Source of the DNA: Acidobacteriota bacterium
GTDB lineage: Bacteria; Acidobacteriota; Thermoanaerobaculia; Multivoradales; UBA5704
Direction: 5' to 3'
Assembly: GCA_040005235.1 (NCBI GenBank)
Contig: JBDTZG010000052.1
Span: forward strand, 1 to 36,792
DNA: 36,792 nt
Below are positions 2,854-30,533 of this stretch, piece after piece. Both the position numbers and the translations under genes were made by a program. The notes under the pieces are model-generated. The model made no database searches and was not told where the DNA came from. It saw only the letters and a list, made by a program, of their open reading frames with translations. The stretch's first letter is position 1, and each line of letters opens with the position of its first letter.

Positions 2854-4095
2854 ATGACCAAAGCGGCACTGTTTGAGGTTCTCCAGAACGGCGAAAGCTC
2901 GGGAGTCGAGTTCAAGCTCGACGCGATCGAGCCTCGCTCTCTCGCCAAGGAGCTTGTCGCGTTCTCAAACCTCGAAGGCGGCCTGCTCCTGCTGGGGGTC
3001 CGCGACGATGGATCGGTTCAGGGGATAGAGCGCGAGCGACTCGAAGAGTGGGTAATGACGACCTGCCGCGACAAGATCCGTCCGGAGCTGATCCCGTATT
3101 TCGAAATTCTTCGCGATGTCGAACCCGGAAAGGACATCGCCGCCGTTCGAGTCGGGCGTGGATGGTCAGTCCATCACGTCTGGCACGGCCAGCACCGGAC
3201 CTACTACATTCGGGTCGGAACAACCAGCCGCGAAGCTTCCCCCGAGGAGCTCGCGCGGTTGTTCCAACAACGGGGCGACTTCCGAGTCGAGCTCCGCCCA
3301 ATCTCCGGCTCGGGCCTTTCGGATCTCGACCTCCGCCGCCTCCGCGACTACTTTTCACGGGTTCGTCAGCAGCCGGTTCCTGACGACAACGACGAGGAAG
3401 GTTGGCGTCGGCTGCTGGTCAACACCGAGCTCCTGAGCGATCAAGATCCGAATTTCCCCTGCACGGTGGCCGCCTTACTGTTGTTCGGCAACAAGCCGAA
3501 TCGATTCCTTCCGCAGTCGGGGATCGACGCGGTTTCCTATCCGGGCAATGAACCCGATTATGCGGCCAGGGAACGCGCCTCGTTGCGCGGCCCCATCACG
3601 CCGCTCTTCAGTCAAAGACCGAATGCCCATCCTGTCCTCGAAGAAGCGGGCTTGGTTGAACATGCCCTTGCGTTCGTCCGCCGCAACAGCGCGGTGACGG
3701 CGACTCTCGACGACGGAGCGCGCCGCGTCGAACGTTTCGATTATCCGGAAGAGGCGGTTCGCGAAGCGGTGGTCAACGCACTGATCCATCGCGACTATCT
3801 GCTCGCCGCGACCGATGTTCAGCTCGCCCTCTATAGCGACCGGCTCGAAATCATTTCCCCGGGAAGGTTACCTAACGGCATCACCGCCGAGCGCATGCGG
3901 GTCGGCTGCCGAGCGGCGCGCAACGAGCTTTTGAAGGACGTAATGCGCGACTACGGTTACCTGGAACATATGGGCCTAGGCGTCCCGCGCAAAATCATCC
4001 GCTTGATGCGCGATCACAACGGCACCGAGCCGGATCTGGTGACGGAGCACGAGCAACTCTTGCTCCGCCTGTGGAAACACTCGCGTTCTGAGTAA
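2854..4095 (+). CDS. Schlafen/AlbA_2 domain protein with RecG-C-like (HATPase_c_4) domain
   Basis: N-terminal GESSGVEFK...KELVAFSNLEGGLLLLGVRDDG (AlbA_2); C-terminal AVREAVVNALIHRDY...RLEIISPGRL...RN...GYLEHMGLGV. Confidence 0.85.
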   Translation: MTKAALFEVLQNGESSGVEFKLDAIEPRSLAKELVAFSNLEGGLLLLGVRDDGSVQGIERERLEEWVMTTCRDKIRPELIPYFEILRDVEPGKDIAAVRVGRGWSVHHVWHGQHRTYYIRVGTTSREASPEELARLFQQRGDFRVELRPISGSGLSDLDLRRLRDYFSRVRQQPVPDDNDEEGWRRLLVNTELLSDQDPNFPCTVAALLLFGNKPNRFLPQSGIDAVSYPGNEPDYAARERASLRGPITPLFSQRPNAHPVLEEAGLVEHALAFVRRNSAVTATLDDGARRVERFDYPEEAVREAVVNALIHRDYLLAATDVQLALYSDRLEIISPGRLPNGITAERMRVGCRAARNELLKDVMRDYGYLEHMGLGVPRKIIRLMRDHNGTEPDLVTEHEQLLLRLWKHSRSE

Positions 4096-4115
4096 GCATG
4101 GGGCAGGCGGACGAG

Positions 4116-4140
4116 GGGGCGACGCTTGCGTCGCCCCTAC
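4116..4140 (-). repeat. GTAG-type REP-like palindrome; may also act as a bidirectional terminator between convergent genes
   Basis: Minus strand reads GTAGGGGCGACGCAAGCGTCGCCCC: GTAG tetranucleotide plus a perfect GC-rich inverted repeat, lying between the convergent stops at 4095 and 4172. Confidence 0.6.
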
Positions 4141-4171
4141 GTCCGCCGACCTGCCGGTGCTGTGCCGCCGA

Positions 4172-4624
4172 TCAGCGGGAGGCGCCGAGGGTTACGTCTT
4201 CGGCAAAGGACTTTTGAAGATAGCCCTTGCCGCGGTGGAAGAACTGGGTATCGATCCGCTTCGGGTTGAACCACTTCTGAACGAAGGCGACGGTCTCGTC
4301 CAGATCGAATACTTTGCACGAGTAGACGTCGACGCTGATGAACCGGTTGTTCGCCGAGGTGTGCACCTGGATGCCGCTCTCGATGATCGGAATCCAGCCG
4401 CTGTAGCCGGGCTTGCCGGGAAACGTCGTCTCGCAGGTCTTGAAGATATAAGGTTGGGTCTGCTTCGTCATGTGAAGGTGAACGCAGATCTTGTCAAGGA
4501 ACTCGTAACCCTTTTCCAGATCGCAACAGGTCTCCACGTCGCAGCCGAAACAGTCGATGATCAGTTGGTAGCCCCAGGACGCTTCTTCCGGCGAAGCGCT
4601 GCCGAACAGGTTGTTTTCAGACAT
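4172..4624 (-). CDS. Pyruvoyl-dependent decarboxylase proenzyme of the S-adenosylmethionine decarboxylase (SpeD/SpeH class 1b) family
   Basis: GYQLIIDCFGC, PGYSGWIPIIE|SGIQVHT (E-S self-cleavage site) and ISVDVYSCK motifs; 150 aa. Substrate cannot be determined from sequence. Confidence 0.85.
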   Translation of the reverse strand: MSENNLFGSASPEEASWGYQLIIDCFGCDVETCCDLEKGYEFLDKICVHLHMTKQTQPYIFKTCETTFPGKPGYSGWIPIIESGIQVHTSANNRFISVDVYSCKVFDLDETVAFVQKWFNPKRIDTQFFHRGKGYLQKSFAEDVTLGASR

Positions 4625-4769
4625 CGTCGTCTCTCTCCAGCGCAGGCGCGGTAGGTTCGGTCGGTTTCTAATCGCTCGGTTGAAACATAGCGCCTTACAG
4701 GTACGGGCGCCGATCGATCTCGGATTTATCTCTTGGCGGAAGAGTTCGGAGTCATCTCGGGCTTCCTTT

Positions 4770-6893
4770 TCAAGCGGCGCCCGGTCGTCTATCTATGCCG
4801 ACCGCTTCGGCCGCGCGGTGTCCATTGACATCTTCCAAATTCGATCGCCGCCGAGGCAACGCTCCGGCAAGATCGCCGATCCTCTGGCCGCCGGGAACCC
4901 AGTCCGGACGATCTTCGAGCCTCTGCTCGGTGAAAGGTGTCGAATATCCGAGCGCGCGCCAAAGCGCTTCGGCGAAAGCCGGCATCAGCGGTCCGGAGAG
5001 CACCGCGAGCTGCTTGGCCGCGAGCAGCTCAAGCGCCACCCCGGTCCGCCGCTCTTCGCCCCGCGCTTCCACCCGCAGCCAGCCGCTTTCCGCGGCACCG
5101 AACCGCCGCGCCGCGCGCACCAGCTCGGAAAGGCCGCGTGCCGCGCGCACGAGAGAAAAGGTTTTCGGTTCGTACCCTTCGGCGATCTCGGCGGAGAGCT
5201 GCTCGATCCGGCGGTAAAAACGCCGATGATCCTCCGTCCAGTCGCCGGTCCAGGGCACCGCGCCGCCGTGCCGGGCGGTGACTTTTTCGGCGAGGCTCAA
5301 AAGCCAACCGCCAAATCCCTGATGCACTTCACGCTCGATCGTCTCGTCGAATTCGCGGCGGGTGAAGTTGCTCCCCTCCACTTCCGGCGCGCTCCAGGCG
5401 AGATAGAAGCGCACTTCGTCGGCCGGCACCTCGGCGACCATCTCGCGCCCCCAGATCGCATGCTGGCGGCTGGTCGAAAACTTCTTGCCGTCGAGGGACA
5501 AGAACTCGTTCATCACCAGCGCTTCCGGCAGGCGAATCTCGGCGTCGAAAGCTTTGAGCATCGCCGGCACCAGCAGGCCGTAGAAAAATCCGTTGTCCGA
5601 GCCGAAGCACTGGACCACGCTCGCTTGCGGAGACTTCCAGAAGCGCTCCCATGAGGCCTCCTCCGCCGGAACCCCCGCCATGTCGCAGACCTCGCGGGCG
5701 TAGGCCAGATAGCGCGGCGACATCTCGCACCAGACCCAGATCCGCTGCGCTTCGAACCCTGCAACCGGCACGGGAATGCCCCAGTCGGCCGGATGGGTGA
5801 CCGCGATGTCCGGCAAGCCGGCCTCGACCACCTGCTCGCACAGCGATCGCAGGCGCGGGTTCATCGCGGTCTTGAGCCAAAATTCGCGCAGGACGTCGAC
5901 GTGCCGCGAGAGCGGAAAATACAGCCGCGTGTAGTTGCGCGGCTCGGGTACACCTAAGCAATGGGTGCAGACCGGATCGATCAGATCGATGCAGTCGTTC
6001 GGCCGGCAGCACTCTTCGCAGCAGTTCCCGCCGCTGGTCGCCCCGCAATGCGGGCAGCCGCCGCGGATGTGGGCTTCGTAGAGATAGATCTCGCAGCGCG
6101 GGCAATACGGCGAAGGCGCCTCGCGCGCGACCAGCTGGCCCGACTCGTACAGGCGAAGGAAGAACGCCTGGACCAGATCGCGGTGGTACGGCGACGCGTT
6201 CGGGCGGGTGAAGGCGTCAAGCTCGATCTCCGCCGCGGCGAGGGTCTCTTGGATCTCGCCCGCGAGGAAGTCCGCCGCCTCGTTCGGTCCCAGGCCCAAC
6301 CGCTCGCCGTTGGTCTTCACGTAGCTCTGGTTGTCGTCCGAGCCGAAGACGTAACGCGCTTCCACGCCCCGCGAGCGGAGATAGCGGGCGATCACGTCGC
6401 CCGCCAGGTACGGACCGGACAGGTGGCCGAGGTGGAGGTCGCCGTTGGGAGTCGGCGGCGCGGCGGTCACCAGGGTCCGCACGGGCCGCACGATGGCCTC
6501 TGCGGCCTTGGCAGGTGCCGCCACCGTGGCCCCCCCGACCTCGCCGGAGTCGGCCCAGAGCTTGCGATCCTCCCACCAGACGGTGAGGAACAGAAGATCC
6601 TCGGTCTCGGAGGTATTGGTGAGCGTGTGCTGATCGAACGGCGGCAGGAAGATCACGTCGCCCGAGCCAATCTCGGTCGTATCGTCGGCGACCCGGATCA
6701 CGCCCCGGCCCCGGGCGACGAAGAACGTCTCGCCTTCCTGGTGGGTGTGGTGCTTGGTCGCGCCGAGCGGCGGCACCACCGCCCACGCCGAACCGAACGG
6801 CGTGCTGACCACCCCTTCCCAAGGGTAGAGCCCTTGGACCGAGATGCCGTACTCGCTTTCGAACTTTGCCGGGTCGAGCCTTTGGATGAACAT
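4770..6893 (-). CDS. Cupin-methionyl-tRNA-synthetase-like fusion (Spb40/PyrN-type hydrazine synthetase)
   Basis: True start MFIQRLDP at 6893. N-terminal cupin with HHTHQEGE and PPFDQH metal motifs, a linker, then a class I aaRS fold: TAAPPTPNGDLHLGH (HIGH), GSDD, CxxC zinc knuckles, KKFSTS (KMSKS). Adjacent to an N-hydroxylase. Confidence 0.88.
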   Translation of the reverse strand: MFIQRLDPAKFESEYGISVQGLYPWEGVVSTPFGSAWAVVPPLGATKHHTHQEGETFFVARGRGVIRVADDTTEIGSGDVIFLPPFDQHTLTNTSETEDLLFLTVWWEDRKLWADSGEVGGATVAAPAKAAEAIVRPVRTLVTAAPPTPNGDLHLGHLSGPYLAGDVIARYLRSRGVEARYVFGSDDNQSYVKTNGERLGLGPNEAADFLAGEIQETLAAAEIELDAFTRPNASPYHRDLVQAFFLRLYESGQLVAREAPSPYCPRCEIYLYEAHIRGGCPHCGATSGGNCCEECCRPNDCIDLIDPVCTHCLGVPEPRNYTRLYFPLSRHVDVLREFWLKTAMNPRLRSLCEQVVEAGLPDIAVTHPADWGIPVPVAGFEAQRIWVWCEMSPRYLAYAREVCDMAGVPAEEASWERFWKSPQASVVQCFGSDNGFFYGLLVPAMLKAFDAEIRLPEALVMNEFLSLDGKKFSTSRQHAIWGREMVAEVPADEVRFYLAWSAPEVEGSNFTRREFDETIEREVHQGFGGWLLSLAEKVTARHGGAVPWTGDWTEDHRRFYRRIEQLSAEIAEGYEPKTFSLVRAARGLSELVRAARRFGAAESGWLRVEARGEERRTGVALELLAAKQLAVLSGPLMPAFAEALWRALGYSTPFTEQRLEDRPDWVPGGQRIGDLAGALPRRRSNLEDVNGHRAAEAVGIDRRPGAA

Positions 6894-6922
6894 CGATCTC
6901 TCTCTCGCCTCTCGCGCCCCGG

Positions 6923-8287
6923 TCAGACCGCGACCGCCTCGACCACTTGGTCCAAAGCGCTCTGCCGGGCATCGACCAACGAATCGAGAATGTTGCCCGC
7001 GCGGATCGGCAGGAGCGACAGGACCGTCTCGCTCGCACCGTGCCGGCGCTCCGAGAAGCCCTGGAGATATACGCCTGGAGCGAAGCCCGGCTTCGATTCG
7101 ACCCGGTAGTCGCGACGGATCCGATATTCGTATCCCCCGCCGGGGACCGGGACTGGATCGCGCTCCAGGTGGCTCGCGACCTCGGCGAGCAGCGGATGGT
7201 CCGACGGCCAGTGATAGCCGGTGGCGAGGATCAACGCATCGACCTCCATCTCGTACGGCCGCTCTTCGAGGGTGTTTTGGAACCTCGCCCAGACCGTGGC
7301 CTCTCGCTCCTCGATCTCCCGCAGCTCCAGGAACGGCAGGAGCGTCGCGCGATTCTTTCCTTCCACCCGTTCGTTGTAGATCTGGCGGTAGATCTGCTGG
7401 ATCAACGGCGCGTCGACCACCGCGTAGTTGACGTCGCGGCACATATCCAGCACCCGGGCGCGCTTCTCGTCGGTGAGCGAGTAGAGCCAGTCGACCCGCT
7501 GGGGAAAGAAGATCTCGTTCGTGAAGTGGCTGTCGTCGACCGGCTTGTAAGCGTATTTCCGGAGCGTCGAGGTGACCTGCGCGTTCGGGTAGTGGGTGAG
7601 CAGGTAGCTGAACAGCTCGGCTCCGCTCTGCCCCGCGCCGACCACCGCGAACTTGTAGGGTGCCGTCTTGTCCGGAAAGTCGTTGCGCATGCGACGCAGG
7701 AATTCATGGTTGTGGAAAGCGCGGCCTCCCGGCACCAAGCGGAGCGGCGGCGGAACCGCAGGAATGCCCCCCGTTGCGAGGACGATGTTCCGGGTCAATA
7801 CCTCTTGGTCTTCGCCGGTCGCGAGATCGCGCGACACGACACGCAGCAGGTCGATCGAGCCGGGCGCCTCGCCGGGCTCGGGGTGGATCGCGACCACTTC
7901 GCAACCCCAACGCACCCGCTCGGAAAGCGCCTCGGCGACCCACACCAGGTAATCGTTGAACTCGATCCGGCCGGGGAACAGGTCGCGCAGGTTCAGGAAC
8001 TCGAACAGCCGTCCTTTTTCCTTCAGGTAGTTCAAGAAAGTAAAACGACTCTGAGGATTCCTTACGGTTGCAAGGTCCTTGAGCACGGAGATCTGGATCA
8101 GCGAGTCTTCGAGCAACATTCCGGGATGCCAGACCGGACCGGTCTTGCCCTCCAGAAACAGTCGGGACATCTGAGACGCCTCGGGCGCCTCTTCCAACGC
8201 GACGGCAAGAGCCAGGTTCGACGGACCGAACCCGACGCCGATGACGTCGAAAGCGCCGACAGCTTCGGCGCGGAGTGGCAATGTCAT
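6923..8287 (-). CDS. FAD/NADPH-dependent ornithine/lysine N-hydroxylase (PvdA/SidA/KtzI/IucD family)
   Basis: GVGFGPSNLALA (FAD), WHPGML, QISVLKDL, VVGAGQSGAE (NADPH), DDSHFTNEIF, NYAVVD, LATGY. Start is ATG 8287 or GTG 8299. Confidence 0.93.
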   Translation of the reverse strand: MTLPLRAEAVGAFDVIGVGFGPSNLALAVALEEAPEASQMSRLFLEGKTGPVWHPGMLLEDSLIQISVLKDLATVRNPQSRFTFLNYLKEKGRLFEFLNLRDLFPGRIEFNDYLVWVAEALSERVRWGCEVVAIHPEPGEAPGSIDLLRVVSRDLATGEDQEVLTRNIVLATGGIPAVPPPLRLVPGGRAFHNHEFLRRMRNDFPDKTAPYKFAVVGAGQSGAELFSYLLTHYPNAQVTSTLRKYAYKPVDDSHFTNEIFFPQRVDWLYSLTDEKRARVLDMCRDVNYAVVDAPLIQQIYRQIYNERVEGKNRATLLPFLELREIEEREATVWARFQNTLEERPYEMEVDALILATGYHWPSDHPLLAEVASHLERDPVPVPGGGYEYRIRRDYRVESKPGFAPGVYLQGFSERRHGASETVLSLLPIRAGNILDSLVDARQSALDQVVEAVAV

Positions 8288-8379
8288 GTTAATGGACACC
8301 TCGGTCGCGTACCCGAAGACGCCCCCACTTCGAAATGGGCGTCAATAACGGTACTCACCTAACAGTGTCCTGCCAGAGG

Positions 8380-8402
8380 AAAAGGGGGACGATTCGTCCC
8401 CC
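8380..8402 (-). terminator. Probable intrinsic terminator of the M28 peptidase gene
   Basis: Minus strand GGGGGACGA-A-TCGTCCCCC followed by TTTT, ~45 bp after the stop at 8447. Confidence 0.5.
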
Positions 8403-8446
8403 TCCCCCCTCCTCCGCTCGGCCGCCAGGCCTTTCCGGTCCGTAGT

Positions 8447-10744
8447 TTAGAGATGGACCTTGCGGCTGACGACGATCGCATCGCCGTCGGAAATCATCTC
8501 CGCCGGCCGGGCTGCGACGAGCGCACGGGCCGCGGGGGGGAGTCCGAGCGACCGGTCGACCAGATAGCCGTCGATCGGCCCAGAGCTGCCGACGACCAGA
8601 TCGAGCACGATCCCCTCGGGCGGCGTCGACAGGCACTGGAACGTAAACCAGTCGCCACGCTGCGGAATTTTGCCTTCCTTGGTCATCGGAATTTCCGTAT
8701 CCCCCATCCGCGCCGAGCGGATGTTCGCGGCAACCGGCACATGGAGGGTGACCGAGGGGGCGCCGCGCGGCGAGACGAGCCGCAGGGAGAGATGCCGGCC
8801 GTCCGGACGCGGCTCGTCGACCAGCACCTCGATCGTCGGAACGACCAAAGGAAGGGGCGGAGCCGGGGCCACGGCGGCCTTCGCCTGAGGGAAAGACCAG
8901 GCGAACGGCTGGCCGATGGCAAACGGCGCGGCGGCGGTGAGCGTAGCGGGGAGCGGACGCCCCGGCGCGAGATCGCCCGCGAGAACCCAGCGGCCGGCGC
9001 CGGCATCCGAATCGAGATGATAGGTCAGAGTCATCCGCTGCGGTGCCGCGGCGGAGGCGCGGGTGGTGGCCGGCACCAGGAACGCCGTCACCACGCCGAC
9101 CAAGGCGATCGCGCCGATCCAGAGCGCCGGACGGCGCGCGTCGGCGTGGAGCGGCGCGAGCGGCATGGCGATCAACCCGAAGACCGCCGCGATCACCGCG
9201 AGGCCCGGCGTGCCGAGACCGGCAAAGAAGAGCAGGGCCAGCGGCGCCCAAAGGATTCCGACCACCGCGAGCGGCAGCAAGGCCGCCAGCCACGGCCGGC
9301 CCGGAAGCCCAAACCAGCCGGCGAGGCCCGCAACCAAAGAAGGGATCACGAACAGGTAGCTTGCGCCGGGCACCAGCACCGCGGTCGCGACGCCGAGGAT
9401 CGACCAGGCGAGCCACACCCCCGTCCACACCCCCGCCGCCCGCGCGTTTCGGGAGACGGCCGCGAGCACGCCCAACACGGCCAAGGCGGCCAAAGCGCCT
9501 ACCGACAGAAGAAGCGCGCCGGCCTCCGCCGGCCAGGCGACCGCCAATCCGCCCGCGATTCTTTCCGCATTGACGAACACGAGGCCGATGCCGGCCGCCG
9601 CCAAAATCGAGGCCAACGCTCCGACCAGCGCCAGGATCGAGCCCCCGGGGCTCGCGACGCGGGCGCCCCAGGCCTTGCGGCAGGCGAGTCCCACGGCGAG
9701 CAGCGCCAGCACCGCGAGCGGCAAGGTCGCAGCGGCGGGCCAACGAACGATGCCGAGCGAGAGCACGTCGAAGAACACGGCGGGACCCTGCTTCGGCCGG
9801 TCGAGCTGAGCCCCGGCGAGCGCTCGCGCCAGCTCGAAGGCGCTCTCCCCCATGTGCTGCAAGCTCGCGGGCGAGGCGTTGGCGAGGCTGTCGAGCGGCG
9901 TATGGTAGCGCTCGGCGTCGCCGATCAGGGCGAAGTTGAACCCCGGCATCCCTTCGCGATTGAAGACGGTGTAGTCGGTGTCGTTCGGCAGCCGTTCGTA
10001 GATCGAAACGAACACCGACGAGGCGACCGGTCGCGAAACCGCATGGGCGAACAGCGGAATCCACGCCCCGTTGGTGTGCTGGGTCTGGAACATCAAACCG
10101 GGACCGGTCGTGCCCCGCGCCTCCAGGTTGATCACCACTCCGACCTCTTTGGCCGTCGGCGTCCGAACGAACGCTTCGGCGCCCAACAGGCCGGCCTCCT
10201 CGCCGTCGTCGACCAGGAAGATCACCGGGTTGTCGGGCGCCGGACCGGCCTTCATCAGGCGCGCGATCTCCAGAATAGCGGCGACGCCCGTCAGGTCGTC
10301 GGAAACGCCCGGACCGCTCGGCACCGAATCGTAGTGGGCCGACAGCAGAACCGCCTTGGGAGTAGACGCCCCCGCCTCGGTGTTTGCGGCGAGACGGGCC
10401 ACGACGTTTTGGACCGTAGTGCAGGGGCCGCCCAGGCGACAGACGAAACCGGGAACCACCTCAGGCTCGTAGCCGAGGCGTCGAAACGCCAGGAGCACCC
10501 GCTCCCGCGTGGCGGCGTTGGCCGCGCTGCCCACCGGATGCGGCTCGCCGTTGCCGACCAGCTCCGCGAGCACCGCCCCCGCCCGCCGGGCGGAAAACTC
10601 CATCTCCGGCGCATCCACAGGTTTGGCCGCAGGAGGCCGGAGCCGCACCACCGCCAGGCCGAACAGCGCCGCGAGAAGCAGCAACCCCACGATCAGCCCG
10701 CCGCTCCCCTTCCTCGAATTCGCCTCGCCGCCCGGCTCGACCAT
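8447..10744 (-). CDS. M28 family membrane metallopeptidase (ERMP1-like architecture)
   Basis: LLSAHYDS, GVSDDLTGVA, DGEEAGLLGA, NLEARG, TDY and YHTPLD zinc-ligand motifs, followed by about 8 TM helices and a C-terminal soluble domain. Confidence 0.9.
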   Translation of the reverse strand: MVEPGGEANSRKGSGGLIVGLLLLAALFGLAVVRLRPPAAKPVDAPEMEFSARRAGAVLAELVGNGEPHPVGSAANAATRERVLLAFRRLGYEPEVVPGFVCRLGGPCTTVQNVVARLAANTEAGASTPKAVLLSAHYDSVPSGPGVSDDLTGVAAILEIARLMKAGPAPDNPVIFLVDDGEEAGLLGAEAFVRTPTAKEVGVVINLEARGTTGPGLMFQTQHTNGAWIPLFAHAVSRPVASSVFVSIYERLPNDTDYTVFNREGMPGFNFALIGDAERYHTPLDSLANASPASLQHMGESAFELARALAGAQLDRPKQGPAVFFDVLSLGIVRWPAAATLPLAVLALLAVGLACRKAWGARVASPGGSILALVGALASILAAAGIGLVFVNAERIAGGLAVAWPAEAGALLLSVGALAALAVLGVLAAVSRNARAAGVWTGVWLAWSILGVATAVLVPGASYLFVIPSLVAGLAGWFGLPGRPWLAALLPLAVVGILWAPLALLFFAGLGTPGLAVIAAVFGLIAMPLAPLHADARRPALWIGAIALVGVVTAFLVPATTRASAAAPQRMTLTYHLDSDAGAGRWVLAGDLAPGRPLPATLTAAAPFAIGQPFAWSFPQAKAAVAPAPPLPLVVPTIEVLVDEPRPDGRHLSLRLVSPRGAPSVTLHVPVAANIRSARMGDTEIPMTKEGKIPQRGDWFTFQCLSTPPEGIVLDLVVGSSGPIDGYLVDRSLGLPPAARALVAARPAEMISDGDAIVVSRKVHL

Positions 10745-10958
10745 GCGCGTCTCTCCCCTTTTTCACCCGAAGCTCGACCGGGATTCGGTCGCGATGTTCG
10801 CTGGTTCTACTCCTCCCTATGGTGCCACAGAGTGGGGAAAGGGGGGCAGGGGGCCGAGGTCGGCACTGAAGCGCCCGTTTCGGAGCACGATGGTTCTAGA
10901 ATCCGCGCCTGCCCCATCGCTCTCTTGGATGGGCTCAACCGCAACTCAAGGAGCTGTC

Positions 10959-11459
10959 ATGAGTCTCGTAGATCCGATTTTGCAAGAGCTGGAGCGTGAG
11001 GCCGCCACCACCCGCCGCGTTCTAGAAGTTGTGCCCGAAGGACAGCTCGGCTGGAAGCCGCACGAGAAGTCGATGTCGCTCGGCACGCTCGCGCTGCACA
11101 TGGCGAACATCCCGGGGAACATCTCGCGCCTCGCCGACAGCGAAGGACTGGAAGGACCGCCGAATTTCGCGCCGGCCGAAGCCACCACCACAGCACAGAT
11201 CCTCGAAGCGCTCGATGCGAGCCTCGCCGACGCCCGCACAATTCTGGGTGCGATGGACGACGAGCGGGCGATGGGCATGTGGTCGATGTCGAGCAACGGC
11301 AAGACTCTCATGACCATGCCCCGCATCGCCATTCTGCGCAACATCCTGCTCAATCACTGGTATCACCACCGCGGCCAGATGACCGTCTACCTGCGCCTGC
11401 TTGGCGTTTCCCTCCCCTCGGTTTACGGCCCGTCGGCAGACGAGAATCCGTTCGGATAA
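10959..11459 (+). CDS. DinB/YfiT family protein
   Basis: ATG after AAGGAG; WKPHEKSMSLGTLALH and HWYHHRGQMTVYLRLLG...PSVYGPS motifs. Confidence 0.9.
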   Translation: MSLVDPILQELEREAATTRRVLEVVPEGQLGWKPHEKSMSLGTLALHMANIPGNISRLADSEGLEGPPNFAPAEATTTAQILEALDASLADARTILGAMDDERAMGMWSMSSNGKTLMTMPRIAILRNILLNHWYHHRGQMTVYLRLLGVSLPSVYGPSADENPFG

Positions 11460-11603
11460 GAAGAGAACCGCTTGATGCAGAATCCCGAGCACACCGACTG
11501 CGCCTGATGTCCGGCTTGATCCGGGGACGGGAGCGGCAGGAGTCGTAGGTGTTGGGAGGAGGGCTGCCGCTCCTACCGCCCCTCCGCCCGCAATGCCGCC
11601 CCC

Positions 11604-11709
11604 CCGAGCCTCCCACCACCCCCCGTTTCCTCACCGAGGAACAAGTCCGCCAGTTGATCGATCACCGACTGTTCGAAGCGTTCAGCCAGGTGATGCCGAA
11701 GAAACCAGC
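11604..11709 (+). pseudogene. Relic copy of the 3' end of the HTH gene at 15637-16311 (direct repeat of ~16202-16308)
   Basis: Encodes FLTEEQVRQLIDHRLFEAFSQVMPKKPA versus FLTEEEVRQLIDRRLFEAFSQVMPKKPA; nucleotide match visible by eye; no HTH domain or plausible start upstream. Confidence 0.85.
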
Positions 11710-11745
11710 CGGACCGACCGGCTCGGGCGTGCTGCCAGCTCGGGA

Positions 11746-11803
11746 CTAGTCCTGGAACGTGGAGACCGCGTCGTCGACGCCGATCGCGACCTCGCGAAAC
11801 TGC
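11746..11803 (-). pseudogene. Relic fragment of a TPR-like gene (paralogous to ~13507-13556)
   Basis: Minus strand encodes QFREVAIGVDDAVSTFQD* versus KFREVACGVDDAVSTFKA in the 13379-14692 protein. Confidence 0.75.
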
Positions 11804-11825
11804 GGCCAATGCCGCACCTCAGTGC

Positions 11826-12287
11826 CTACTCCGGGAGTTCCTCCGTGTCCAGGGTACAGGGATTGCCCGTTCCCGGGCCACAGTGCCCGCAATCCGACGA
11901 ATGGACGGGAATGCAGACAATTGGGGAGATATCGATAAAAACTGGAGCCGTGGCGTAGAACGCGTCGAAGGTCGCGCGATAGTACCGGCCCTCTTGGCTT
12001 GGGGCGCGAACGTATCCAACGTATTCGGTGATGCCGATCCAGGGTCCCCCGGCGATCCGAAAATTTCCGTCGTCGAGGAGGAAATGAGTCCCCTGGATGA
12101 CAGTGTTGAATGAGACCGTGCCGGAGGCTGTGAACAAAGTAACAACGCTGGAGGAATCGACGGCGCGGACCCGTTGGTTCGCGCCGACGGAACCTCGAAA
12201 GAACTCACCGAAAGCGAAAGCGGGGGTCAGTCCCCAAGCGAGGCAGCAGGCGATCAAAATCCAGGATCCCAACCAGGAGGCTTTCAT
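11826..12287 (-). CDS. Secreted hypothetical protein with a Cys-rich C-terminus
   Basis: GGAGG RBS and TAATG overlap with the upstream gene; signal peptide MKASWLGSWILIACCLAWGLTPAFA; C-terminus CIPVHSSDCGHCGPGTGNPC. Confidence 0.65.
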   Translation of the reverse strand: MKASWLGSWILIACCLAWGLTPAFAFGEFFRGSVGANQRVRAVDSSSVVTLFTASGTVSFNTVIQGTHFLLDDGNFRIAGGPWIGITEYVGYVRAPSQEGRYYRATFDAFYATAPVFIDISPIVCIPVHSSDCGHCGPGTGNPCTLDTEELPE

Positions 12288-12961
12288 TAGCATCCTCCTG
12301 CGAGGTAGCGAAGGTGGTCGGCGGAGACGTTGCTGTCGACGGAGGTACCATAGACGGAGACACTCAGCGTGCCGGGCGCAATGGCCTCGTAGAGGAAGCG
12401 ATCGAAGGCCTCCCTGCCGAAGGTCGCGCGCGCCGTCTCGAGGCTTTGGGCGTGTAACCGACAATCCTTTTTGCCGAACTCTTCGGCTTGGCGGTCGATT
12501 TCCGCCCGCCTCCCGGGATGCGCAGTCTGATACTCCTTCGCGAGCGCTCGCTGCGCCTTGATCGAATCCAGATAGGGCCGGGCGACTTGTTCGAGTCGCT
12601 GCCAGAAGTCGTTGTCGATCCGTATTCCGCCGGACTTGGACTGATATTCGTCGCGAAATCCCTGGCTGGCCTCGGGCAAGGGAGAGAAGGCCCGCATGAG
12701 GAGGTCTTGATAGAGCTCAATGGGTAGGAAGAGTTCGGGATTCTTGTCGCCTTGTACGACGTCGCGGCCTGCGGCATCTAAGGCGCCTTCCGTCTCCGCG
12801 ACGTAGGCGTTTTCGCGGGAGCGCATGGAAGAAGGGTCATAGCGTTTGGAGATTCGCTCCTCATCGGTCCACTTCCATGGCGGCCTCGGAGAATCCTGGC
12901 CGCGGGCTGCCGCAGCGAGCAACAGACCCGTTATGAGCAAAGCTGATGAAATCATGCGCAT
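12287..12961 (-). CDS. Secreted hypothetical helical protein
   Basis: AAGGAG RBS before ATG 12961; signal peptide MRMISSALLITGLLLAAAARG; motif-like VVQGDKNPELFLPIELY; ends LRYLAGGC. Confidence 0.75.
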   Translation of the reverse strand: MRMISSALLITGLLLAAAARGQDSPRPPWKWTDEERISKRYDPSSMRSRENAYVAETEGALDAAGRDVVQGDKNPELFLPIELYQDLLMRAFSPLPEASQGFRDEYQSKSGGIRIDNDFWQRLEQVARPYLDSIKAQRALAKEYQTAHPGRRAEIDRQAEEFGKKDCRLHAQSLETARATFGREAFDRFLYEAIAPGTLSVSVYGTSVDSNVSADHLRYLAGGC

Positions 12962-13378
12962 GAAGCGATCTCCTTTTTCAGGGTTCAGGACCGATGGATC
13001 AAGCGACACGAGGGCTGAGAAAAGCTGTTTGATCTTCATACGCATCAAGGTCCTCCTTCGTTGCTGGCGCCGACGAGACGGCAGGCATTTGTAAAGTCGC
13101 CATTTTGTGCACACGACTGTGGCTTGAACCCGCCGCGGGAACCAGCTGTGGTGCGACTCTGAGGAATACTTGGTCAGATTGATCTTTATCTGGCGTCATG
13201 GTGACGCCACTTTGCCCGAGCGAGAAAGCGAAGTCAAGAGGAATCTATCGGGCCTTGAGAATTCTTTGCCGACGTGCCAAAAAGAAAGGGCAGCGGTGCG
13301 CCCTGGGAGGGTACTGGCCGTCGCCAAGACCACACGGGCGGGGCAAGACCGCCGTCCGTGTGGTGAGATTTTCCTTCC

Positions 13379-14692
13379 CTACCGCCCCTCCGCCCGCAAC
13401 GCCGCCCCCGCCGCCTGGACCATCGCGACAGTCGCCTGTTCGCCCCGCGCAGCTTCTTGAAGCAGCAGCAAACCGGCGAGCGCCTCGCGGCGGATCTTCA
13501 GGGCCTTGAAGGTAGAGACCGCGTCGTCGACACCGCAAGCGACTTCGCGGAACTTGCCGCGACGAATCCAGATCGCGCAGAGGTCGAGGGTGACCAGGCT
13601 GGCTTGAAAGAAAAGGCTGCGATCTTCGAATCCGGTCCTGACGGCGCGCAGGTAGGCATCGGCACAGGGAAGGTTGCCGAGGCCGGCTTCGATCTGCGCC
13701 TCCACCCATTGGCGACGGAGAAGATCCGTCTCGTCGCCCCATTCCTTATAAAGGGGCTCGCAGCGATCCAGCCAGGCGCGAGCGGTTTCGAAATGGCCGA
13801 GTCGGGTGGTGCAGAATAATGTGTTGTGGAAGGCTGCGAGCGCGAGGTCAGGATCACGAGCGAGGTCCAGAAGCTCGAGGCTGCGCAGGAAGAAGCCCAA
13901 TGCAGCGAAGTTATCTTGGCGGTGCTCGGCGATCAAACCGCGTTCCAAACAAATACGGCCCGCGATGTGATGTTCGCCGTGTTGTTCCCGAAATCCCTGC
14001 AGATAGGCGAGTAGGTCTTCGGCCTCTGCGAGTCGGCGCGATGCCATTAGAAATTGTGCCGCCCCTTCGGCCGAGTCGAGGAGCGGCATCAGCTCGGTCG
14101 CCGCCGCCACAGCCCCGTGGAATGCCCCCTCGGCACTGGCGAAATCGCCAGTCAGGCGCCGGGCGTTCGCCAACTCGGTCCAAGTTTCGCTTCGGAGGTT
14201 GTCAACGACCCCTTCGGGATGCATCTCCGGTTTCAGCGAACCGGCGAAGCTGACAGAGAGCACCGCCGCAAACAGGCAATATTCGGGGTCCTCACGGCGC
14301 TCCCCCCGTGCTTCGCCGAGCCAAGCCTTGGCGCGAGCGAACAGAAGCATCTGGGTGGGAGGAGGAAGTTCGTCCAGGTGGACCAGACCTTCCACTTCAT
14401 CCTCCGCCTGCTCTCTCGCCTCGGCCAGCTCGACGCCGATGGCGAGCGACTTCTTTATCGCGCCACGCAGGCGGAAGTCCTGAATATTGCCCAGGGCCAC
14501 TGCCCGCTCGTCGTCATTGGCCACGGGAAGATCCACGATCGCTGAAGGCCAGGGGAGCTTTCCCGCCAGCTCGCAGCAGTCTGGACATCTCTGGGCCAGA
14601 TGCTTGACGACCTCAAGAAGCCGACCGCCTTCAAGCTGCTGCGCCCAGAGATCCGTGATCTCGGCAGGAATCAAGTGCGGGGTGTCCGACAT
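13379..14692 (-). CDS. TPR-like helical repeat protein with N-terminal HxxxxCxxC motif (paralog A)
   Basis: GGAGG RBS; KHLAQRCPDC; TPR-like helices (ELANARRLTGDFASAEGAF, RLGHFETARAWL); C-terminal ASLVTLDL...IRREALAGLLLL shared with the 21462-22793 protein. Confidence 0.85.
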   Translation of the reverse strand: MSDTPHLIPAEITDLWAQQLEGGRLLEVVKHLAQRCPDCCELAGKLPWPSAIVDLPVANDDERAVALGNIQDFRLRGAIKKSLAIGVELAEAREQAEDEVEGLVHLDELPPPTQMLLFARAKAWLGEARGERREDPEYCLFAAVLSVSFAGSLKPEMHPEGVVDNLRSETWTELANARRLTGDFASAEGAFHGAVAAATELMPLLDSAEGAAQFLMASRRLAEAEDLLAYLQGFREQHGEHHIAGRICLERGLIAEHRQDNFAALGFFLRSLELLDLARDPDLALAAFHNTLFCTTRLGHFETARAWLDRCEPLYKEWGDETDLLRRQWVEAQIEAGLGNLPCADAYLRAVRTGFEDRSLFFQASLVTLDLCAIWIRRGKFREVACGVDDAVSTFKALKIRREALAGLLLLQEAARGEQATVAMVQAAGAALRAEGR

Positions 14693-23315: not shown

Positions 23316-24563
23316 TCAATCGATAGCGGCGACAAGGGCATCGATCGTCCGATCGATCTCTTCGACGGTGTTGTAGTGGGCCATCGAGATCCGCACCACG
23401 CCCTGCCGTTCGGTCAATCCGAGCGCTTGCACCAGCCGGCGGGAATGAAAATCGCCGTAGCGGATGCCGATCGAATGTCCGTCGAGCGCGGCGGGAAAAT
23501 CGGAGGCGTTCCGTCCCTCCACGGCAAACGACACTGTAGCCACCCTGCGCGCGGCGTCGCCTTCCGGCACTCCCAGGATCCACACGTCGCGCCGTTGCCT
23601 GAGGAAAGCGAGCAGCCGTTCGGCGAGCGACCCTTCGTGCTCGGCGATCGCGGCGAATGCCGCCGCGCGGAGACCGGCCCCGTCGCCTTCGCCGCCGGCC
23701 CGCCGCCCGACCTCGTCCAGATACTCCTTGATCGCGGGGAGAGATGCCGCCAGCTCGAAATTGGCGTTGCCCGGCTGGAGCTTGTAAGGGATTTCCTGGC
23801 GGCCGATGAACGCGTGGTTGACGTTGGCGAGCCCCTCCAGCCAATCGTGGCGGACGAACAGCGCTCCCAGATGGGGACCGAAGATTTTGTAGAGGCTGGC
23901 GACGTACGCATCGGCCCCCCACGCGTCGACCTCCACGTGGCGGTGGGGGGCGAACGCCACGCCGTCCACGATCGCCCGCGCGCCCGCCGCGTGAATCCGC
24001 TCGACGATCTCCCTTACCGGATGGATCGTACCGAACAGGTTCGAAACATGCGGAAAACAGACCCACCGGGTGCGGGCGGAGAGCAGCGGCTCCAGCTGTT
24101 CCGGCACCAGGGCCAGAACCGACAGGTCGGTCTTCCACCAGCGCACCACGGCGCCTTTTTCGGCCAGCCCCAGCCAGGGAGTCACGTTGGCTTCGTGATC
24201 GCAGTCGGTGACGACCACTTCGTCCCCCGGTTGCAGATCCTCGCCGATCGAACGGGCGAAGTTTTGGAGCAGCTGGGTGCTCGAACCGCCGAGGATCACC
24301 TCGCCGGGCGTCGAGCCGAACAGCTCCGCCGCCGCCGCCCTCCCGGCCGCCACCCGCGCCGCCGCCCGGCGAGACGGCTCATAGGTCGCGCCAAGCTGGA
24401 CGTTGGTCGTCAGCAGATAGTCGCGCACCCGGTCGGCGACCGTGGCCAGGGTCTGAGAGCCTCCGGCATTGTCCAGATAGACCCAGTCGCCGAGGAGCGC
24501 CGGAAACGATCCACGGACGAAATCCAGATCCAGCGCGAGCCGGGCGGGAGGAGATAGGACCAT
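23316..24563 (-). CDS. Class V PLP-dependent enzyme, cysteine-desulfurase-like (lacks the catalytic Cys)
   Basis: AAGGAG RBS; YLDNAGGSQ, DHEANVTPW, VDGVAFAPH, SLYKIFGPH (PLP lysine), VRISMAHYNT. Confidence 0.88.
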   Translation of the reverse strand: MVLSPPARLALDLDFVRGSFPALLGDWVYLDNAGGSQTLATVADRVRDYLLTTNVQLGATYEPSRRAAARVAAGRAAAAELFGSTPGEVILGGSSTQLLQNFARSIGEDLQPGDEVVVTDCDHEANVTPWLGLAEKGAVVRWWKTDLSVLALVPEQLEPLLSARTRWVCFPHVSNLFGTIHPVREIVERIHAAGARAIVDGVAFAPHRHVEVDAWGADAYVASLYKIFGPHLGALFVRHDWLEGLANVNHAFIGRQEIPYKLQPGNANFELAASLPAIKEYLDEVGRRAGGEGDGAGLRAAAFAAIAEHEGSLAERLLAFLRQRRDVWILGVPEGDAARRVATVSFAVEGRNASDFPAALDGHSIGIRYGDFHSRRLVQALGLTERQGVVRISMAHYNTVEEIDRTIDALVAAID

Positions 24564-24719
24564 GAAAAGTGCTCCTTTGAAGGATTTATCGGATTGTAGC
24601 CGAGCCGGAAAACCTCTGCCGGTTGTGACGGCGAAAGGACCCACCACGACCGGCTGTGCCGTCGCCAACTCAGCACGGCTGAAGCGCCTTCGGAATCTTA
24701 TTTCTCGGCGTAAATCGTC

Positions 24720-24748
24720 TTGACTTACGCCTCTGTTACGCCTATCGT
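24720..24748 (+). promoter_or_regulatory. Sigma70-like promoter containing a TTACGCCT direct repeat
   Basis: TTGACT (24720-24725), 17 nt spacer, TATCGT (24743-24748); TTACGCCT at 24725 and 24736. Confidence 0.5.
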
Positions 24749-24809
24749 TCTTCCTGTCACGAGGACCCAATACCGAACTGGCATGAGGTCCCCGCGGGAG
24801 GCAATTCCA

Positions 24810-25361
24810 ATGAACGACCGCTCCTCTCCTCTCTTCGATCGGCTCGGTCGAGCCGTGCGCTGGCTGCGCGAGCGTCAGGGCAAGAAACAGTACCTCGTGG
24901 CGGATACGGCGGGCGTCACGAAAGGCATGCTTTCCGCCTACGAAACCGGCCGACAGAAGCCATCTCTCGAAACGCTGGAAAAGCTGCTGACGGCGCTCGG
25001 CTGCGATCTTCACGATCTGCACAACGCGATTCAGATCGTCAACGAGCGTCCCGAGGGAATTCGCCGCTCCGGCTTCGGCGGCTTCGGCTCTCTCGGAAGC
25101 CTCGGCGCCTTCGAGCTCTACCCCACCGGCACGCCGGGTCCGCGGCTGGAAATCGCCGAACCGCACCCACCGGGCAGCCAGGGCGGCTATGGCGGCCCTG
25201 ATGGCGACCTGCTCGATGTCGGCCGGCTGCTCGGCATCGATCGCGCGCTCGAAGAGGAAGAGCGGCGGGCGCTCGAAGAGATCGTCGCCGGCTGTCACCG
25301 GCTGGTACGCCACCTGCATCGCGCCGTCGAGGAACGCAGCAGCCCCCGAACCGCGAGCTGA
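24810..25361 (+). CDS. XRE family HTH transcriptional regulator
   Basis: GGGAGG RBS; LGRAVRWLRERQGKKQYLVADTAGVTKGMLSAYETGRQKPSLETLEKLL. Confidence 0.9.
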   Translation: MNDRSSPLFDRLGRAVRWLRERQGKKQYLVADTAGVTKGMLSAYETGRQKPSLETLEKLLTALGCDLHDLHNAIQIVNERPEGIRRSGFGGFGSLGSLGAFELYPTGTPGPRLEIAEPHPPGSQGGYGGPDGDLLDVGRLLGIDRALEEEERRALEEIVAGCHRLVRHLHRAVEERSSPRTAS

Positions 25362-25404
25362 TACTCTCGCCCCGGGGCTCTGCCAGCTTCTCAGCGAGGT
25401 ACTC

Positions 25405-26079
25405 ATGATTCGACTCAACCACCGTGCCGCCCTTCGGCTCTCCTTCGGGGGAGCCTCGATTTTCTTGTCTGCGATGGTGGTGGCCGCAGCGTCATCGCCC
25501 TCACCCCCAACACCGCAAAAACAGCCGCCCTCCCAGCCCTCCGCCACCTCCACGCCGACCCGAACGCCGGCCCCCGGCGCTTCGGACCGGACCGCCAAGG
25601 CCGCCAAATATTTTCTGGGGCAGCTCGACCCGGCCGATGCGATCGTCGTCGGCAAGGCGACCGGCCTCAAACCGGGAACAGTGGAAGACGCTCCGGTGTC
25701 GTTGGTGACGTTCGCGGTGAGCCAAACGGTCCGGGGCAAGGCTGCACCGGAAATGGAGATCGTCGTGCCCCGGACGCTCATCCAATCGGGGGGGATCCTG
25801 CTCGAAACCGGTTCGCAGGATCAGCCGCTGCTCAGCGTCGGAGAAGAGGCGCTGCTGTTCGTGAGCCGCTATCCGGATCGCGACAACTCGTACTCCATCC
25901 TGGCGGGCAACTTGGGAAAGTTTCTGGTGATGACGACCGCCGAAGGCGAAAAGCGGGCCGAGCGCTATCTGCTGGCCGGCCCCGTCGCCGGAGGAGTGCC
26001 GCTTTCGACCCTGATCACCCAGATCCGCTTGGAGCTAAAGATCCCGGACGAGAAGGCCGCCCCTCCGAAGCCCCAATAG
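25405..26079 (+). CDS. Exported hypothetical protein
   Basis: GAGG RBS; hydrophobic N-terminal signal, Pro/Thr linker, beta-rich domain (ADAIVVGK...VTFAVSQTVRG...GEEALLFV). Confidence 0.7.
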   Translation: MIRLNHRAALRLSFGGASIFLSAMVVAAASSPSPPTPQKQPPSQPSATSTPTRTPAPGASDRTAKAAKYFLGQLDPADAIVVGKATGLKPGTVEDAPVSLVTFAVSQTVRGKAAPEMEIVVPRTLIQSGGILLETGSQDQPLLSVGEEALLFVSRYPDRDNSYSILAGNLGKFLVMTTAEGEKRAERYLLAGPVAGGVPLSTLITQIRLELKIPDEKAAPPKPQ

Positions 26080-30508: not shown

Positions 30509-30533
30509 GATCCGGTCGAATCAGGGACTGCCC

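Follow-up and report, generated by a model that had tools for sequence, protein, structure and literature searches.

We analysed a 36,792-nucleotide stretch of DNA from the genome of an uncultured soil acidobacterium (assembly GCA_040005235.1, contig JBDTZG010000052.1), hereafter the window, which corresponds to contig C20 of a 6.2-Mb, 140-contig genome (G000). Three of its genes encode a flavin N-hydroxylase (NMO), a fusion of a cupin domain with a methionyl-tRNA synthetase (MetRS)-like domain, taken as a hydrazine synthetase (HS), and a small SpeD-like pyruvoyl decarboxylase (SpeDl). The analysis covered the identities of the genes, their catalytic motifs, the fold of the decarboxylase and its position in a tree, and how the genes occur together, adjoin one another or are jointly missing in relatives. 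From this we read the trio as an accessory, operon-like cassette that would form a four-enzyme pathway for N-N bond formation together with an FAD oxidase of the DAO family encoded elsewhere in the genome. In this pathway SpeDl would be an enzyme that converts one of the intermediates. We give this reading a probability of about 0.55. The hydrazine-forming machinery is of a known kind, and the new element is the SpeD-like decarboxylase that accompanies it.

NMO, HS and SpeDl follow one another in the same direction on the minus strand, in line with a preliminary description of the window that had listed three co-oriented genes on the basis of the letters alone, and Pfam searches bore out their identities. 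NMO (6923..8287; ATG at 8287, stop at 6923, with an alternative GTG start at 8299) encodes a 454-residue hydroxylase of the Lys/Orn type (PF13434, Lys_Orn_oxgnase, E 1.1e-103). It is followed, after the 29-bp gap that had also been noted, by HS (4770..6893; ATG at 6893, stop at 4770), which encodes 707 residues matching PF07883 and PF09334. SpeDl (4172..4624; ATG at 4624, stop at 4172) encodes 150 residues matching PF02675 and belongs to what we call the ES-G subfamily. In the 145-bp spacer that separates it from HS (4625..4769), neither a terminator-like site nor an Rfam family was found, and the fold z-score of 0.14 was no better than that of shuffled sequences.

The cupin domain of HS (PF07883; residues 38-105, 6579..6782 on the minus strand) carries the predicted metal ligands H49, H51, E55 and H89. 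These align with PyrN H50, H52, E56 and H90 (pattern H-x-H-x3-E...H) and were kept in the intact homologues aligned; in PyrN they are reported as the cupin metal ligands, with the Glu being essential in both PyrN and RHS1 (PMC8664883). The MetRS-like adenylating core (PF09334; residues 141-528, 5310..6473 on the minus strand) contains an HLGH motif (154-157) and a KFSTS motif, matching the HxGH and KFST(G/S) motifs given for PyrN, the latter replacing KMSKS (bioRxiv 10.1101/2025.08.22.671884). The best solved relative was the C-terminal domain of PyrN (PyrN-C, 9vq4), with 293.5 bits (E 2.4e-86) over residues 130-666, compared to 249.5 bits for the best true MetRS (from P. abyssi). A second, separate MetRS-family gene (PF09334) is present in the genome on contig C118. 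NMO adjoined HS in 13 of 24 related loci. The view that both proteins represent the hydrazine machinery of Spb38/Spb40 and PyrM/PyrN, already put forward in the preliminary description, was supported in that the pair displayed every sequence hallmark of these systems.

With regard to the amino acid that HS would activate, we mapped the eight pocket residues through the PyrN-C alignment. The mapping is supported because it gave back the published PyrN code, SFVQALNR, and because an NRPS-linked HS paralogue from a relative (locus L041; NRPS, non-ribosomal peptide synthetase) read TPDQWMNH exactly, which is the published glycine-type code of AzsN (PMC12376268). HS itself read APDQWMNY, to be set against this glycine code, and has Arg394 where PyrN has R390. 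The combination APD[Q/S]W[M/I]NY plus Arg394 was observed in all 13 intact full-length HS copies that adjoin SpeDl, whereas the glycine-type paralogues carry Gly at the Arg394 position. Like the PyrN C-terminal domain (PDB 9vq4, 9l8v), HS conserves D420 and N421 (D433 and N434 in HS) as well as N143 and R390. Unlike PyrN, it has Tyr in place of R425, Ala/Pro in place of S138/F139, Asp in place of V179 and Trp/Met in place of A384/L387. Since R425 of PyrN is reported to bind the glutamate side chain (bioRxiv 10.1101/2025.08.22.671884), its exchange for Tyr, together with the other pocket changes, indicates that HS would not be of the glutamate type. Its partner is probably a small amino acid, with Gly, Ala, Ser and Asp as candidates, read from a pocket class that matches no characterised enzyme known to us.

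Matches to the HS query among genome contigs were confined to close Thermoanaerobaculia relatives. Some relatives hold several versions of the gene. The glycine-code paralogue mentioned above belongs to a second N-N cluster (L041, G129:C20, 1842-11767), in which a DAO gene, an N-hydroxylase, HS and an NRPS (C-A-T) follow one another. At L046 (G061:C3, 2607-14105) a cupin-less HS lies between a type I polyketide synthase (PKS) and an NRPS. At L040 (G129:C7, 3528-6380) a 950-residue open reading frame (ORF) with a C-terminal cytochrome P450 domain stands directly 3' of an NMO-HS pair that has the pocket code of the SpeDl-linked copies.

The best solved relatives of NMO were MbtG (Lys N6; E 4e-94) and then PvdA, SidA and KtzI (Orn N5; E 1e-86 to 1e-79), with 319-268 bits, compared to 149-127 bits (E 1e-42 to 6e-36) for the diamine hydroxylases DfoA, DesB and FbsI. 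Further, K70, N257, N287 and S424 of NMO align with SidA K107, N293, N323 and S469, which hold the alpha-carboxylate and alpha-amine of ornithine and which DesB is described as lacking (PMC8009421). All 20 NMO homologues from related loci kept the Lys of this set, and 19 of them kept the complete set of four. Because the SidA-type residues are kept and the scores lie nearer to the Lys/Orn hydroxylases, the substrate of NMO is most likely an alpha-amino acid and not a diamine. This disfavours one option of the preliminary description, namely that the decarboxylase supplies NMO with a diamine.

The fourth component, a DAO-family FAD oxidoreductase (PF01266), is encoded at 41781-43106 of contig C117 and is the orthologue of an oxidase found in the cassettes of relatives, being 62% identical to the copy that adjoins SpeDl in G061. 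In relatives this gene turns up beside SpeDl or beside NMO-HS. By coordinates, 15 of the 32 genomes with both HS and SpeDl have it no more than about 1.3 kb away from SpeDl, and in G281 NMO, HS and DAO are direct neighbours, a triad that stands there without SpeDl. In a sample of the order (151 genomes, including one unpublished genome, G386, with neither SpeDl nor HS), DAO was detected in 38 of the 39 genomes with HS and in 0 of the 112 others, the sole miss being G319, which is 79% complete. In a sample of the class (301 genomes), the ten genomes with DAO were exactly the ten with HS. Among curated families, DAO comes nearest to those of amine C-N oxidases (pipecolate oxidase, MnmC1, glycine oxidase), with scores far under each cut-off, and a search for solved relatives at E 1e-5 gave none. 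The cassette had been called minimal, with no FAD oxidase adjacent. None adjoins it in the window, but the orthologue on C117 and its distribution speak against that description: the cassette is not minimal, and NMO, HS and DAO make up, as far as their sequences tell, a triad of the Spb38/39/40 type.

The genome holds no PF02675 gene besides SpeDl, which scored 56 bits against a Pfam cut-off of 25. It remained under the cut-off of the NCBIfam model (TIGR03330) for S-adenosylmethionine decarboxylase (AdoMetDC; 42.9 vs. 75.65). Alignment to 2iii placed the predicted self-cleavage and pyruvoyl-forming serine at Ser83 (E82-S83; codon at 4376..4378, minus strand), followed by H88 and C103. The spacing of these three residues (Ser, His at +5, Cys at +20) is that of S63, H68 and C83 of the T. 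maritima enzyme, reported as its processing and catalytic residues (PMC10407285), and all three were kept in 34 of 34 orthologues. The surrounding motif is E-S-G-I-Q-V-H-T-S-A, compared to the canonical E-S-H-x-S-x-H-T-W-P. Its H-T-S-A stands where 2iii, like the order's canonical speD genes, has H-T-W-P, and the Pro after His-Thr-x, described as fully conserved in bona fide AdoMetDCs (PMC10407285), is thus missing from SpeDl. A single-sequence fold (pLDDT 32) was set aside for an alignment-based AlphaFold model (pLDDT 89), which matched T. maritima AdoMetDC (1vr7_B) with a TM score of 0.89, a root-mean-square deviation of 1.9 A and 20-24% identity. SpeDl is thus predicted to be an AdoMetDC-fold pyruvoyl decarboxylase that processes itself but is not a bona fide AdoMetDC.

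In a quick IQ-TREE analysis of 62 rows, with SH-aLRT as the sole support measure, the SpeDl sequences formed a clade (support 100) whose stem is long (1.4 changes per column). It is nested in a 41-row "ES-G/S" clade (support 100), to which the C-terminal domains of three SpeD-SpeD fusions also belong. The canonical speD sequences of G281, G321 and G336 fell into another clade, together with the N-terminal domains of the same fusions. Two SpeD-SpeD fusions have been characterised by Li et al., and in these the second domain carries ornithine decarboxylase activity (PMC10407285). The fusions in our tree are homologues and not the published proteins, and the likeness of the SpeDl branch to ornithine decarboxylases should hence be read as an analogy rather than an identity. 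The published ornithine decarboxylases of this origin, SpeDC, are described as a single clade with four diagnostic residues, Gln, Thr, Phe and Tyr, in their central region (PMC10407285). Residues Q86 (also Q55), T89, F95 and Y101 of SpeDl are present and conserved, a comparison made with the text description of SpeDC; the tree holds no validated member.

ES-G-type sequences were further found in CPR, Omnitrophota, DPANN and methanogen records (80 loci, none from strains with validated enzymes), a taxon range that fits the one described for SpeDC in PMC10407285. Neither NMO nor DAO occurred near any of these 80 sister-group loci from other phyla, and for HS only weak matches of the aminoacyl-tRNA synthetase kind were seen, in 12 of them. 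A tblastn search of the same loci for polyamine context, carried out with one SpeE and one deoxyhypusine-synthase domain and leaving HSS, CASDH and CASDC unsearched, was positive in 0 of 80. Three records were retrieved by tblastn against phage sequences, none of them among the published enzymes. Only five of the 1.84 billion representatives searched scored at or below E 1e-30 to SpeDl. The best 120 of its 189 close homologues were all annotated as AdoMetDC and, where named, came from Acidobacteriota. The closest named public records (94-100% protein identity) are metagenome-assembled genomes of Thermoanaerobaculia or Holophagales, in agreement with the non-actinomycete host suggested in the preliminary description.

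The PF02675 matches of the order fell into two classes, a canonical one (98-135 bits over 318 nt) and a SpeDl type (50-67 bits, mostly 336 nt). We defined the latter by score and length (34 matches of 336 nt and two of 339 nt), leaving out one 330-nt match of G336, which lies outside the SpeDl clade in the tree, and six shorter partial matches. SpeDl-type genes were present in 36 of the 151 genomes, 32 of which also contained HS; the four without it were G293, G326, G342 and G352. Seven genomes held HS only and 108 held neither. Of the 32 genomes with both genes, 20 carry HS immediately upstream of SpeDl and co-oriented with it; in three the two lie within 6 kb but in a different orientation, and in nine they are on separate contigs. 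The three-gene synteny, whose conservation the preliminary description had proposed to check, is found in relatives as well. In G185, NMO directly follows SpeDl and both HS copies lie elsewhere.

A genome of the same genus that is 98% complete (G209) lacks SpeDl, HS and DAO. In this genome the IMPDH and M28 peptidase genes that flank the cassette in the window are 67 bp apart (blastn, tblastn), so that the segment 2828..8453, with a Schlafen/AlbA_2 gene, SpeDl, HS and NMO, is missing as a block. A clean loss is seen at the cassette and not at DAO, whose flanking genes lie on two contigs in G209. Since near relatives (L002-L006) have the trio without the Schlafen-like gene, the trio is the unit that comes and goes. 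Judged by synteny and co-occurrence, the association of the three genes is more than chance.

Another question was whether SpeDl might simply be the housekeeping SpeD of this genome, out of synteny in relatives, a case raised in the preliminary description. Although it is the only PF02675 gene here, SpeDl is a distinct accessory subfamily, syntenic with NMO-HS, and not a housekeeping SpeD, because it forms a separate clade, both kinds of gene are carried by G321 and G313, the canonical speD of G336 is followed by speE, and the conserved Pro is absent. The fifth reason is a fused gene for a protein resembling a major facilitator superfamily (MFS) transporter and spermidine synthase (724 residues; G000:C93, L026:1213-3387, minus strand), which scored over an NCBIfam subfamily cut-off and has homologues in four of four relatives without any PF02675 gene (G209, G093, G327, G337). 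This fused protein is therefore kept in relatives that have no AdoMetDC-family gene to supply the donor substrate. No stand-alone speE was found in the genome, which holds only two large fused ORFs of this kind, the better one being the gene just described.

Two of the SpeDl genes without HS were observed next to assembly-line genes. At L049 (G293, 6738-13950) SpeDl comes directly after a 2233-residue NRPS-PKS hybrid, and at L067 (G326, 3881-8933) it lies 5 bp before a C-A-T-reductase NRPS module; both genomes are without HS and DAO. These neighbourhoods suggest a wider role of SpeDl in supplying amine building blocks.

For the pathway as a whole, we propose a scheme in which the individual reactions, their order, the amino-acid partner and the product are inferred, the reactions of NMO, HS and DAO from family knowledge. 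NMO would N-hydroxylate the side-chain amine of L-lysine or L-ornithine. The MetRS-like domain of HS would then adenylate a small amino acid and esterify it onto the N-hydroxy group, and the zinc cupin domain would rearrange the ester to a hydrazine. DAO would oxidise a C-N bond beside the hydrazine, as do Spb39, Tri27 or Apy10. SpeDl would remove the alpha-carboxyl of the Lys/Orn-derived half of an intermediate. Its substrate could be the N-hydroxylated amino acid, the adduct that carries the hydrazine or, once this adduct has been cleaved oxidatively, the resulting omega-hydrazino amino acid. The pathway would yield a polyamine-like hydrazine with an amine end, and this decarboxylated compound is the reading that we prefer. 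Direct decarboxylation of an alpha-hydrazino acid by SpeDl was also considered and dropped on chemical grounds, as a pyruvoyl hydrazone would not put the electron sink beside the carboxylate.

A more specific version, which we hold as a tentative and rather unlikely elaboration, has the pathway end in a free omega-hydrazino-alkylamine, i.e., an aza-analogue of putrescine or cadaverine (e.g., 4-hydrazinylbutylamine or 5-hydrazinylpentylamine), which might serve as a polyamine antimetabolite or as an amine building block for the NRPS/PKS lines found beside SpeDl in some relatives. In that case DAO would, like Apy10, cut the adduct on its amino-acid side, and SpeDl, as an ornithine-decarboxylase-like enzyme grown tolerant of hydrazines, would then decarboxylate the omega-hydrazino amino acid. 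If true, this would be, to our knowledge, the first natural hydrazine analogue of a polyamine and the first AdoMetDC-fold enzyme recruited into the biosynthesis of an N-N natural product.

Other explanations for the presence of SpeDl were weighed against a catalytic role in the N-N pathway. It could be a pyruvoyl enzyme that decarboxylates ornithine (or arginine) to supply polyamines and that came to lie near the hydrazine genes through a shared island history and not through chemistry, an explanation that we consider possible but unlikely. Its placement in the ES-G group, with a taxon range fitting the published SpeDC ornithine decarboxylase clade (PMC10407285), its status as the sole PF02675 gene of the genome and its occurrence without HS in four of 36 genomes, in some of them beside housekeeping genes of the IscS/MnmA type, would all agree with such a function. 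However, the genome already encodes a PLP-dependent arginine decarboxylase over the NCBIfam cut-off (PLP, pyridoxal phosphate) and two more PLP decarboxylases of that family, LysA and a third enzyme, and genomes of the same genus and the same family live without any PF02675 gene. Moreover, HS accompanies SpeDl in 32 of 36 genomes and directly adjoins it in 20, SpeDl, HS and DAO are jointly lost in G209, the SpeDl clade has a long stem within its group, and none of the 80 sister-group loci has NMO or DAO. An order of reactions with SpeDl acting first, according to the DesA/DesB logic, appears improbable. Here, SpeDl would make putrescine or cadaverine, to be N-hydroxylated by NMO and coupled by HS. 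Some HS enzymes accept N-hydroxy-putrescine and N-hydroxy-diaminopropane according to a review (PMC11705231), and SpeDl and NMO are direct neighbours without HS in G185, both of which would suit this order, whereas the four SidA-type ornithine-binding residues kept by NMO and absent from the cadaverine hydroxylase DesB (PMC8009421), as well as its far higher scores to Lys/Orn than to diamine hydroxylases, argue against it.

That SpeDl is a bona fide AdoMetDC, feeding for instance the fused MFS/spermidine-synthase-like protein, seems very improbable to us. Pfam and public annotations do name it AdoMetDC, and a fused synthase homologue over its subfamily cut-off is at hand in the genome, but SpeDl falls short of the NCBIfam AdoMetDC cut-off and lacks the conserved Pro that serves as a criterion in PMC10407285. 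It also falls into another clade than the order's canonical speD genes, and the fused gene persists in all four relatives without a PF02675 gene. Least credible of all is a non-catalytic role in protecting the producer, with SpeDl as a hydrazine-reactive pyruvoyl decoy or a resistant copy of the target. Its support is limited to the established tendency of hydrazines to react with pyruvoyl and PLP cofactors and to the tight linkage of the genes; against it stand the lack of a second, sensitive PF02675 gene in the genome, the retention of the catalytic residues in all 34 SpeDl orthologues and the occurrence of SpeDl in genomes without HS.

Several observations weigh against SpeDl as a pathway enzyme of N-N bond formation and temper our confidence in it. 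The linkage is not obligatory, as SpeDl occurs without HS or DAO in four of 36 genomes, two of them having it beside the NRPS/PKS genes of L049 and L067 and two beside housekeeping genes, while HS and DAO occur without SpeDl in seven of 39. The counts are not independent events and overstate independence, because every positive genome comes from a single order. DAO is unlinked in this genus, lying between the genes for a tRNA pseudouridine synthase and an aspartokinase-homoserine dehydrogenase. The HS pocket code has no characterised counterpart that we are aware of, and the HS copies adjacent to SpeDl at L007 (5013-6815) and at L008/L050 (4938-6773; G061) have degenerate HIGH/KMSKS motifs with intact cupin ligands. 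These copies are likely adenylation-dead; G061 holds two further HS copies. The placement of SpeDl with the published SpeDC enzymes rests on architecture and taxon range, with no validated SpeDC sequence in the tree. Free hydrazines and aminooxy compounds are, moreover, classical covalent inactivators of carbonyl cofactors such as pyruvoyl and PLP, and several of the human AdoMetDC structures that matched the SpeDl model are adducts of this type. For a pyruvoyl enzyme, a free hydrazine is therefore a chemically awkward substrate, which makes the identity of the decarboxylated intermediate uncertain. Finally, the reading draws on sequence, modelling and synteny.

The surroundings of the cassette are made up of housekeeping or unrelated genes, with IMPDH and a Schlafen/AlbA_2-type gene on one side and genes for an M28 peptidase and a DinB-family protein on the other. 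The peptidase was considered as a cassette member and dropped, as it stays in G209 where the trio is gone. The terminator and the palindrome that had been reported to bound the cassette were both found. A terminator-like hairpin with a T-rich tail (8385..8402, minus strand) follows the peptidase gene, between its stop (8447) and the NMO start; the terminator scan returned three sites compared to 4.0 +/- 2.2 in shuffles, and only the position of the hairpin carries meaning. A perfect 9-bp stem with a 4-nt loop, read from the sequence (4116..4137, minus strand), comes after the SpeDl stop and lies between convergent genes. An Rfam search of 4000-8700 gave a weak miRNA-family match on this terminal hairpin as its sole result, which we take as chance. 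Pfam scans of 25 other ORFs of the window revealed no FAD oxidase, NRPS, PKS or carrier protein, in agreement with the earlier remark that none of these, nor an exporter, adjoins the cassette; an outer-membrane factor and an AcrB-type pump are encoded about 20 kb away (27882-33818). The Schlafen/AlbA_2 gene (2854-4095, plus strand; 413 residues, with HATPase_c_4) lies between IMPDH and SpeDl in G000 only and is missing from L002-L006 and G209; it looks like a separate recent insertion, possibly with a role in defence.

Two further ORFs of the window may be mentioned. An 821-residue ORF (23316-25781, minus strand) has a class V aminotransferase domain at residues 434-811 only, its N-terminal ~430 residues being without a Pfam match. 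At the window start (1-1046), a 366-residue minus-strand ORF without a Pfam family matches three tandem copies, 65-68% identical, upstream of IMPDH in G209 (L061, 6604-10220), which points to a locally amplified gene family.

Our literature searches, which covered openly accessible and not subscription sources, found no paper linking hydrazine synthetases to an AdoMetDC-like or pyruvoyl decarboxylase, and none of the hydrazine-synthetase papers found in them mentions Acidobacteriota. One review joins a hydrazine synthetase and decarboxylases, the latter being of the unrelated UbiD, valine and prephenate types. According to PMC11705231, the amino-acid side of HS enzymes needs a carboxylate, and extra steps such as decarboxylation may be needed in biocatalytic routes. 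Hydrazine synthetases are being mined as biocatalysts, and here nature seems to pair this machinery with a small, cofactor-free decarboxylase, by which amine-terminated hydrazines could become accessible from a system of four ordinary-size genes. If SpeDl acts on a pathway intermediate, the recently discovered change of function among AdoMetDC homologues would extend from polyamine to secondary metabolism. The system would also point to N-N chemistry in Acidobacteriota.

Like the DesA/DesB pair of hydroxamate siderophore pathways, whose decarboxylase DesA is PLP-dependent, the cassette joins a decarboxylase to a flavin N-hydroxylase; unlike that pair, its hydroxylase keeps the carboxylate-binding residues that DesB lacks, and no siderophore synthetase was seen in the Pfam scans of the window ORFs. 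A closer resemblance is to Spb38/39/40 (s56-p1), Tri26/27/28 (triacsin) and AzsL/M/N (azaserine), each composed of an N-hydroxylase, a DAO-type FAD oxidase and a cupin/MetRS-like HS (reviewed in PMC11705231). The same three enzyme families are present here, with matching cupin ligands, HxGH and KFST motifs and an oxidase that co-occurs with HS. In contrast to these systems, a pyruvoyl decarboxylase is added as a fourth constant partner, the oxidase gene of this genus lies apart from the others, and the window has neither an NRPS or PKS nor a carrier protein next to the genes. The host, too, is different, being a member of Acidobacteriota. HS enzymes that accept N-hydroxy-putrescine or N-hydroxy-1,3-diaminopropane (Matsuda 2024, as cited in PMC11705231) indicate that decarboxylated amine scaffolds occur in the chemistry of this family, whereas here the hydroxylase looks specific for amino acids and a dedicated pyruvoyl decarboxylase is encoded. 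With regard to the decarboxylase itself, the nearest parallels are SpeDC and SpeDA, homologues of AdoMetDC that have become pyruvoyl-dependent decarboxylases of ornithine or arginine (Li et al. 2023, PMC10407285; phage forms, PMC9992855). SpeDl shares with them the class 1b AdoMetDC fold, the Ser/His/Cys spacing, the loss of the Pro and the grouping with the second domains of SpeD-SpeD fusions. Unlike these enzymes, which belong to polyamine gene clusters, SpeDl sits with N-N bond or NRPS/PKS genes and forms a long branch of its own, seen only in one acidobacterial order.

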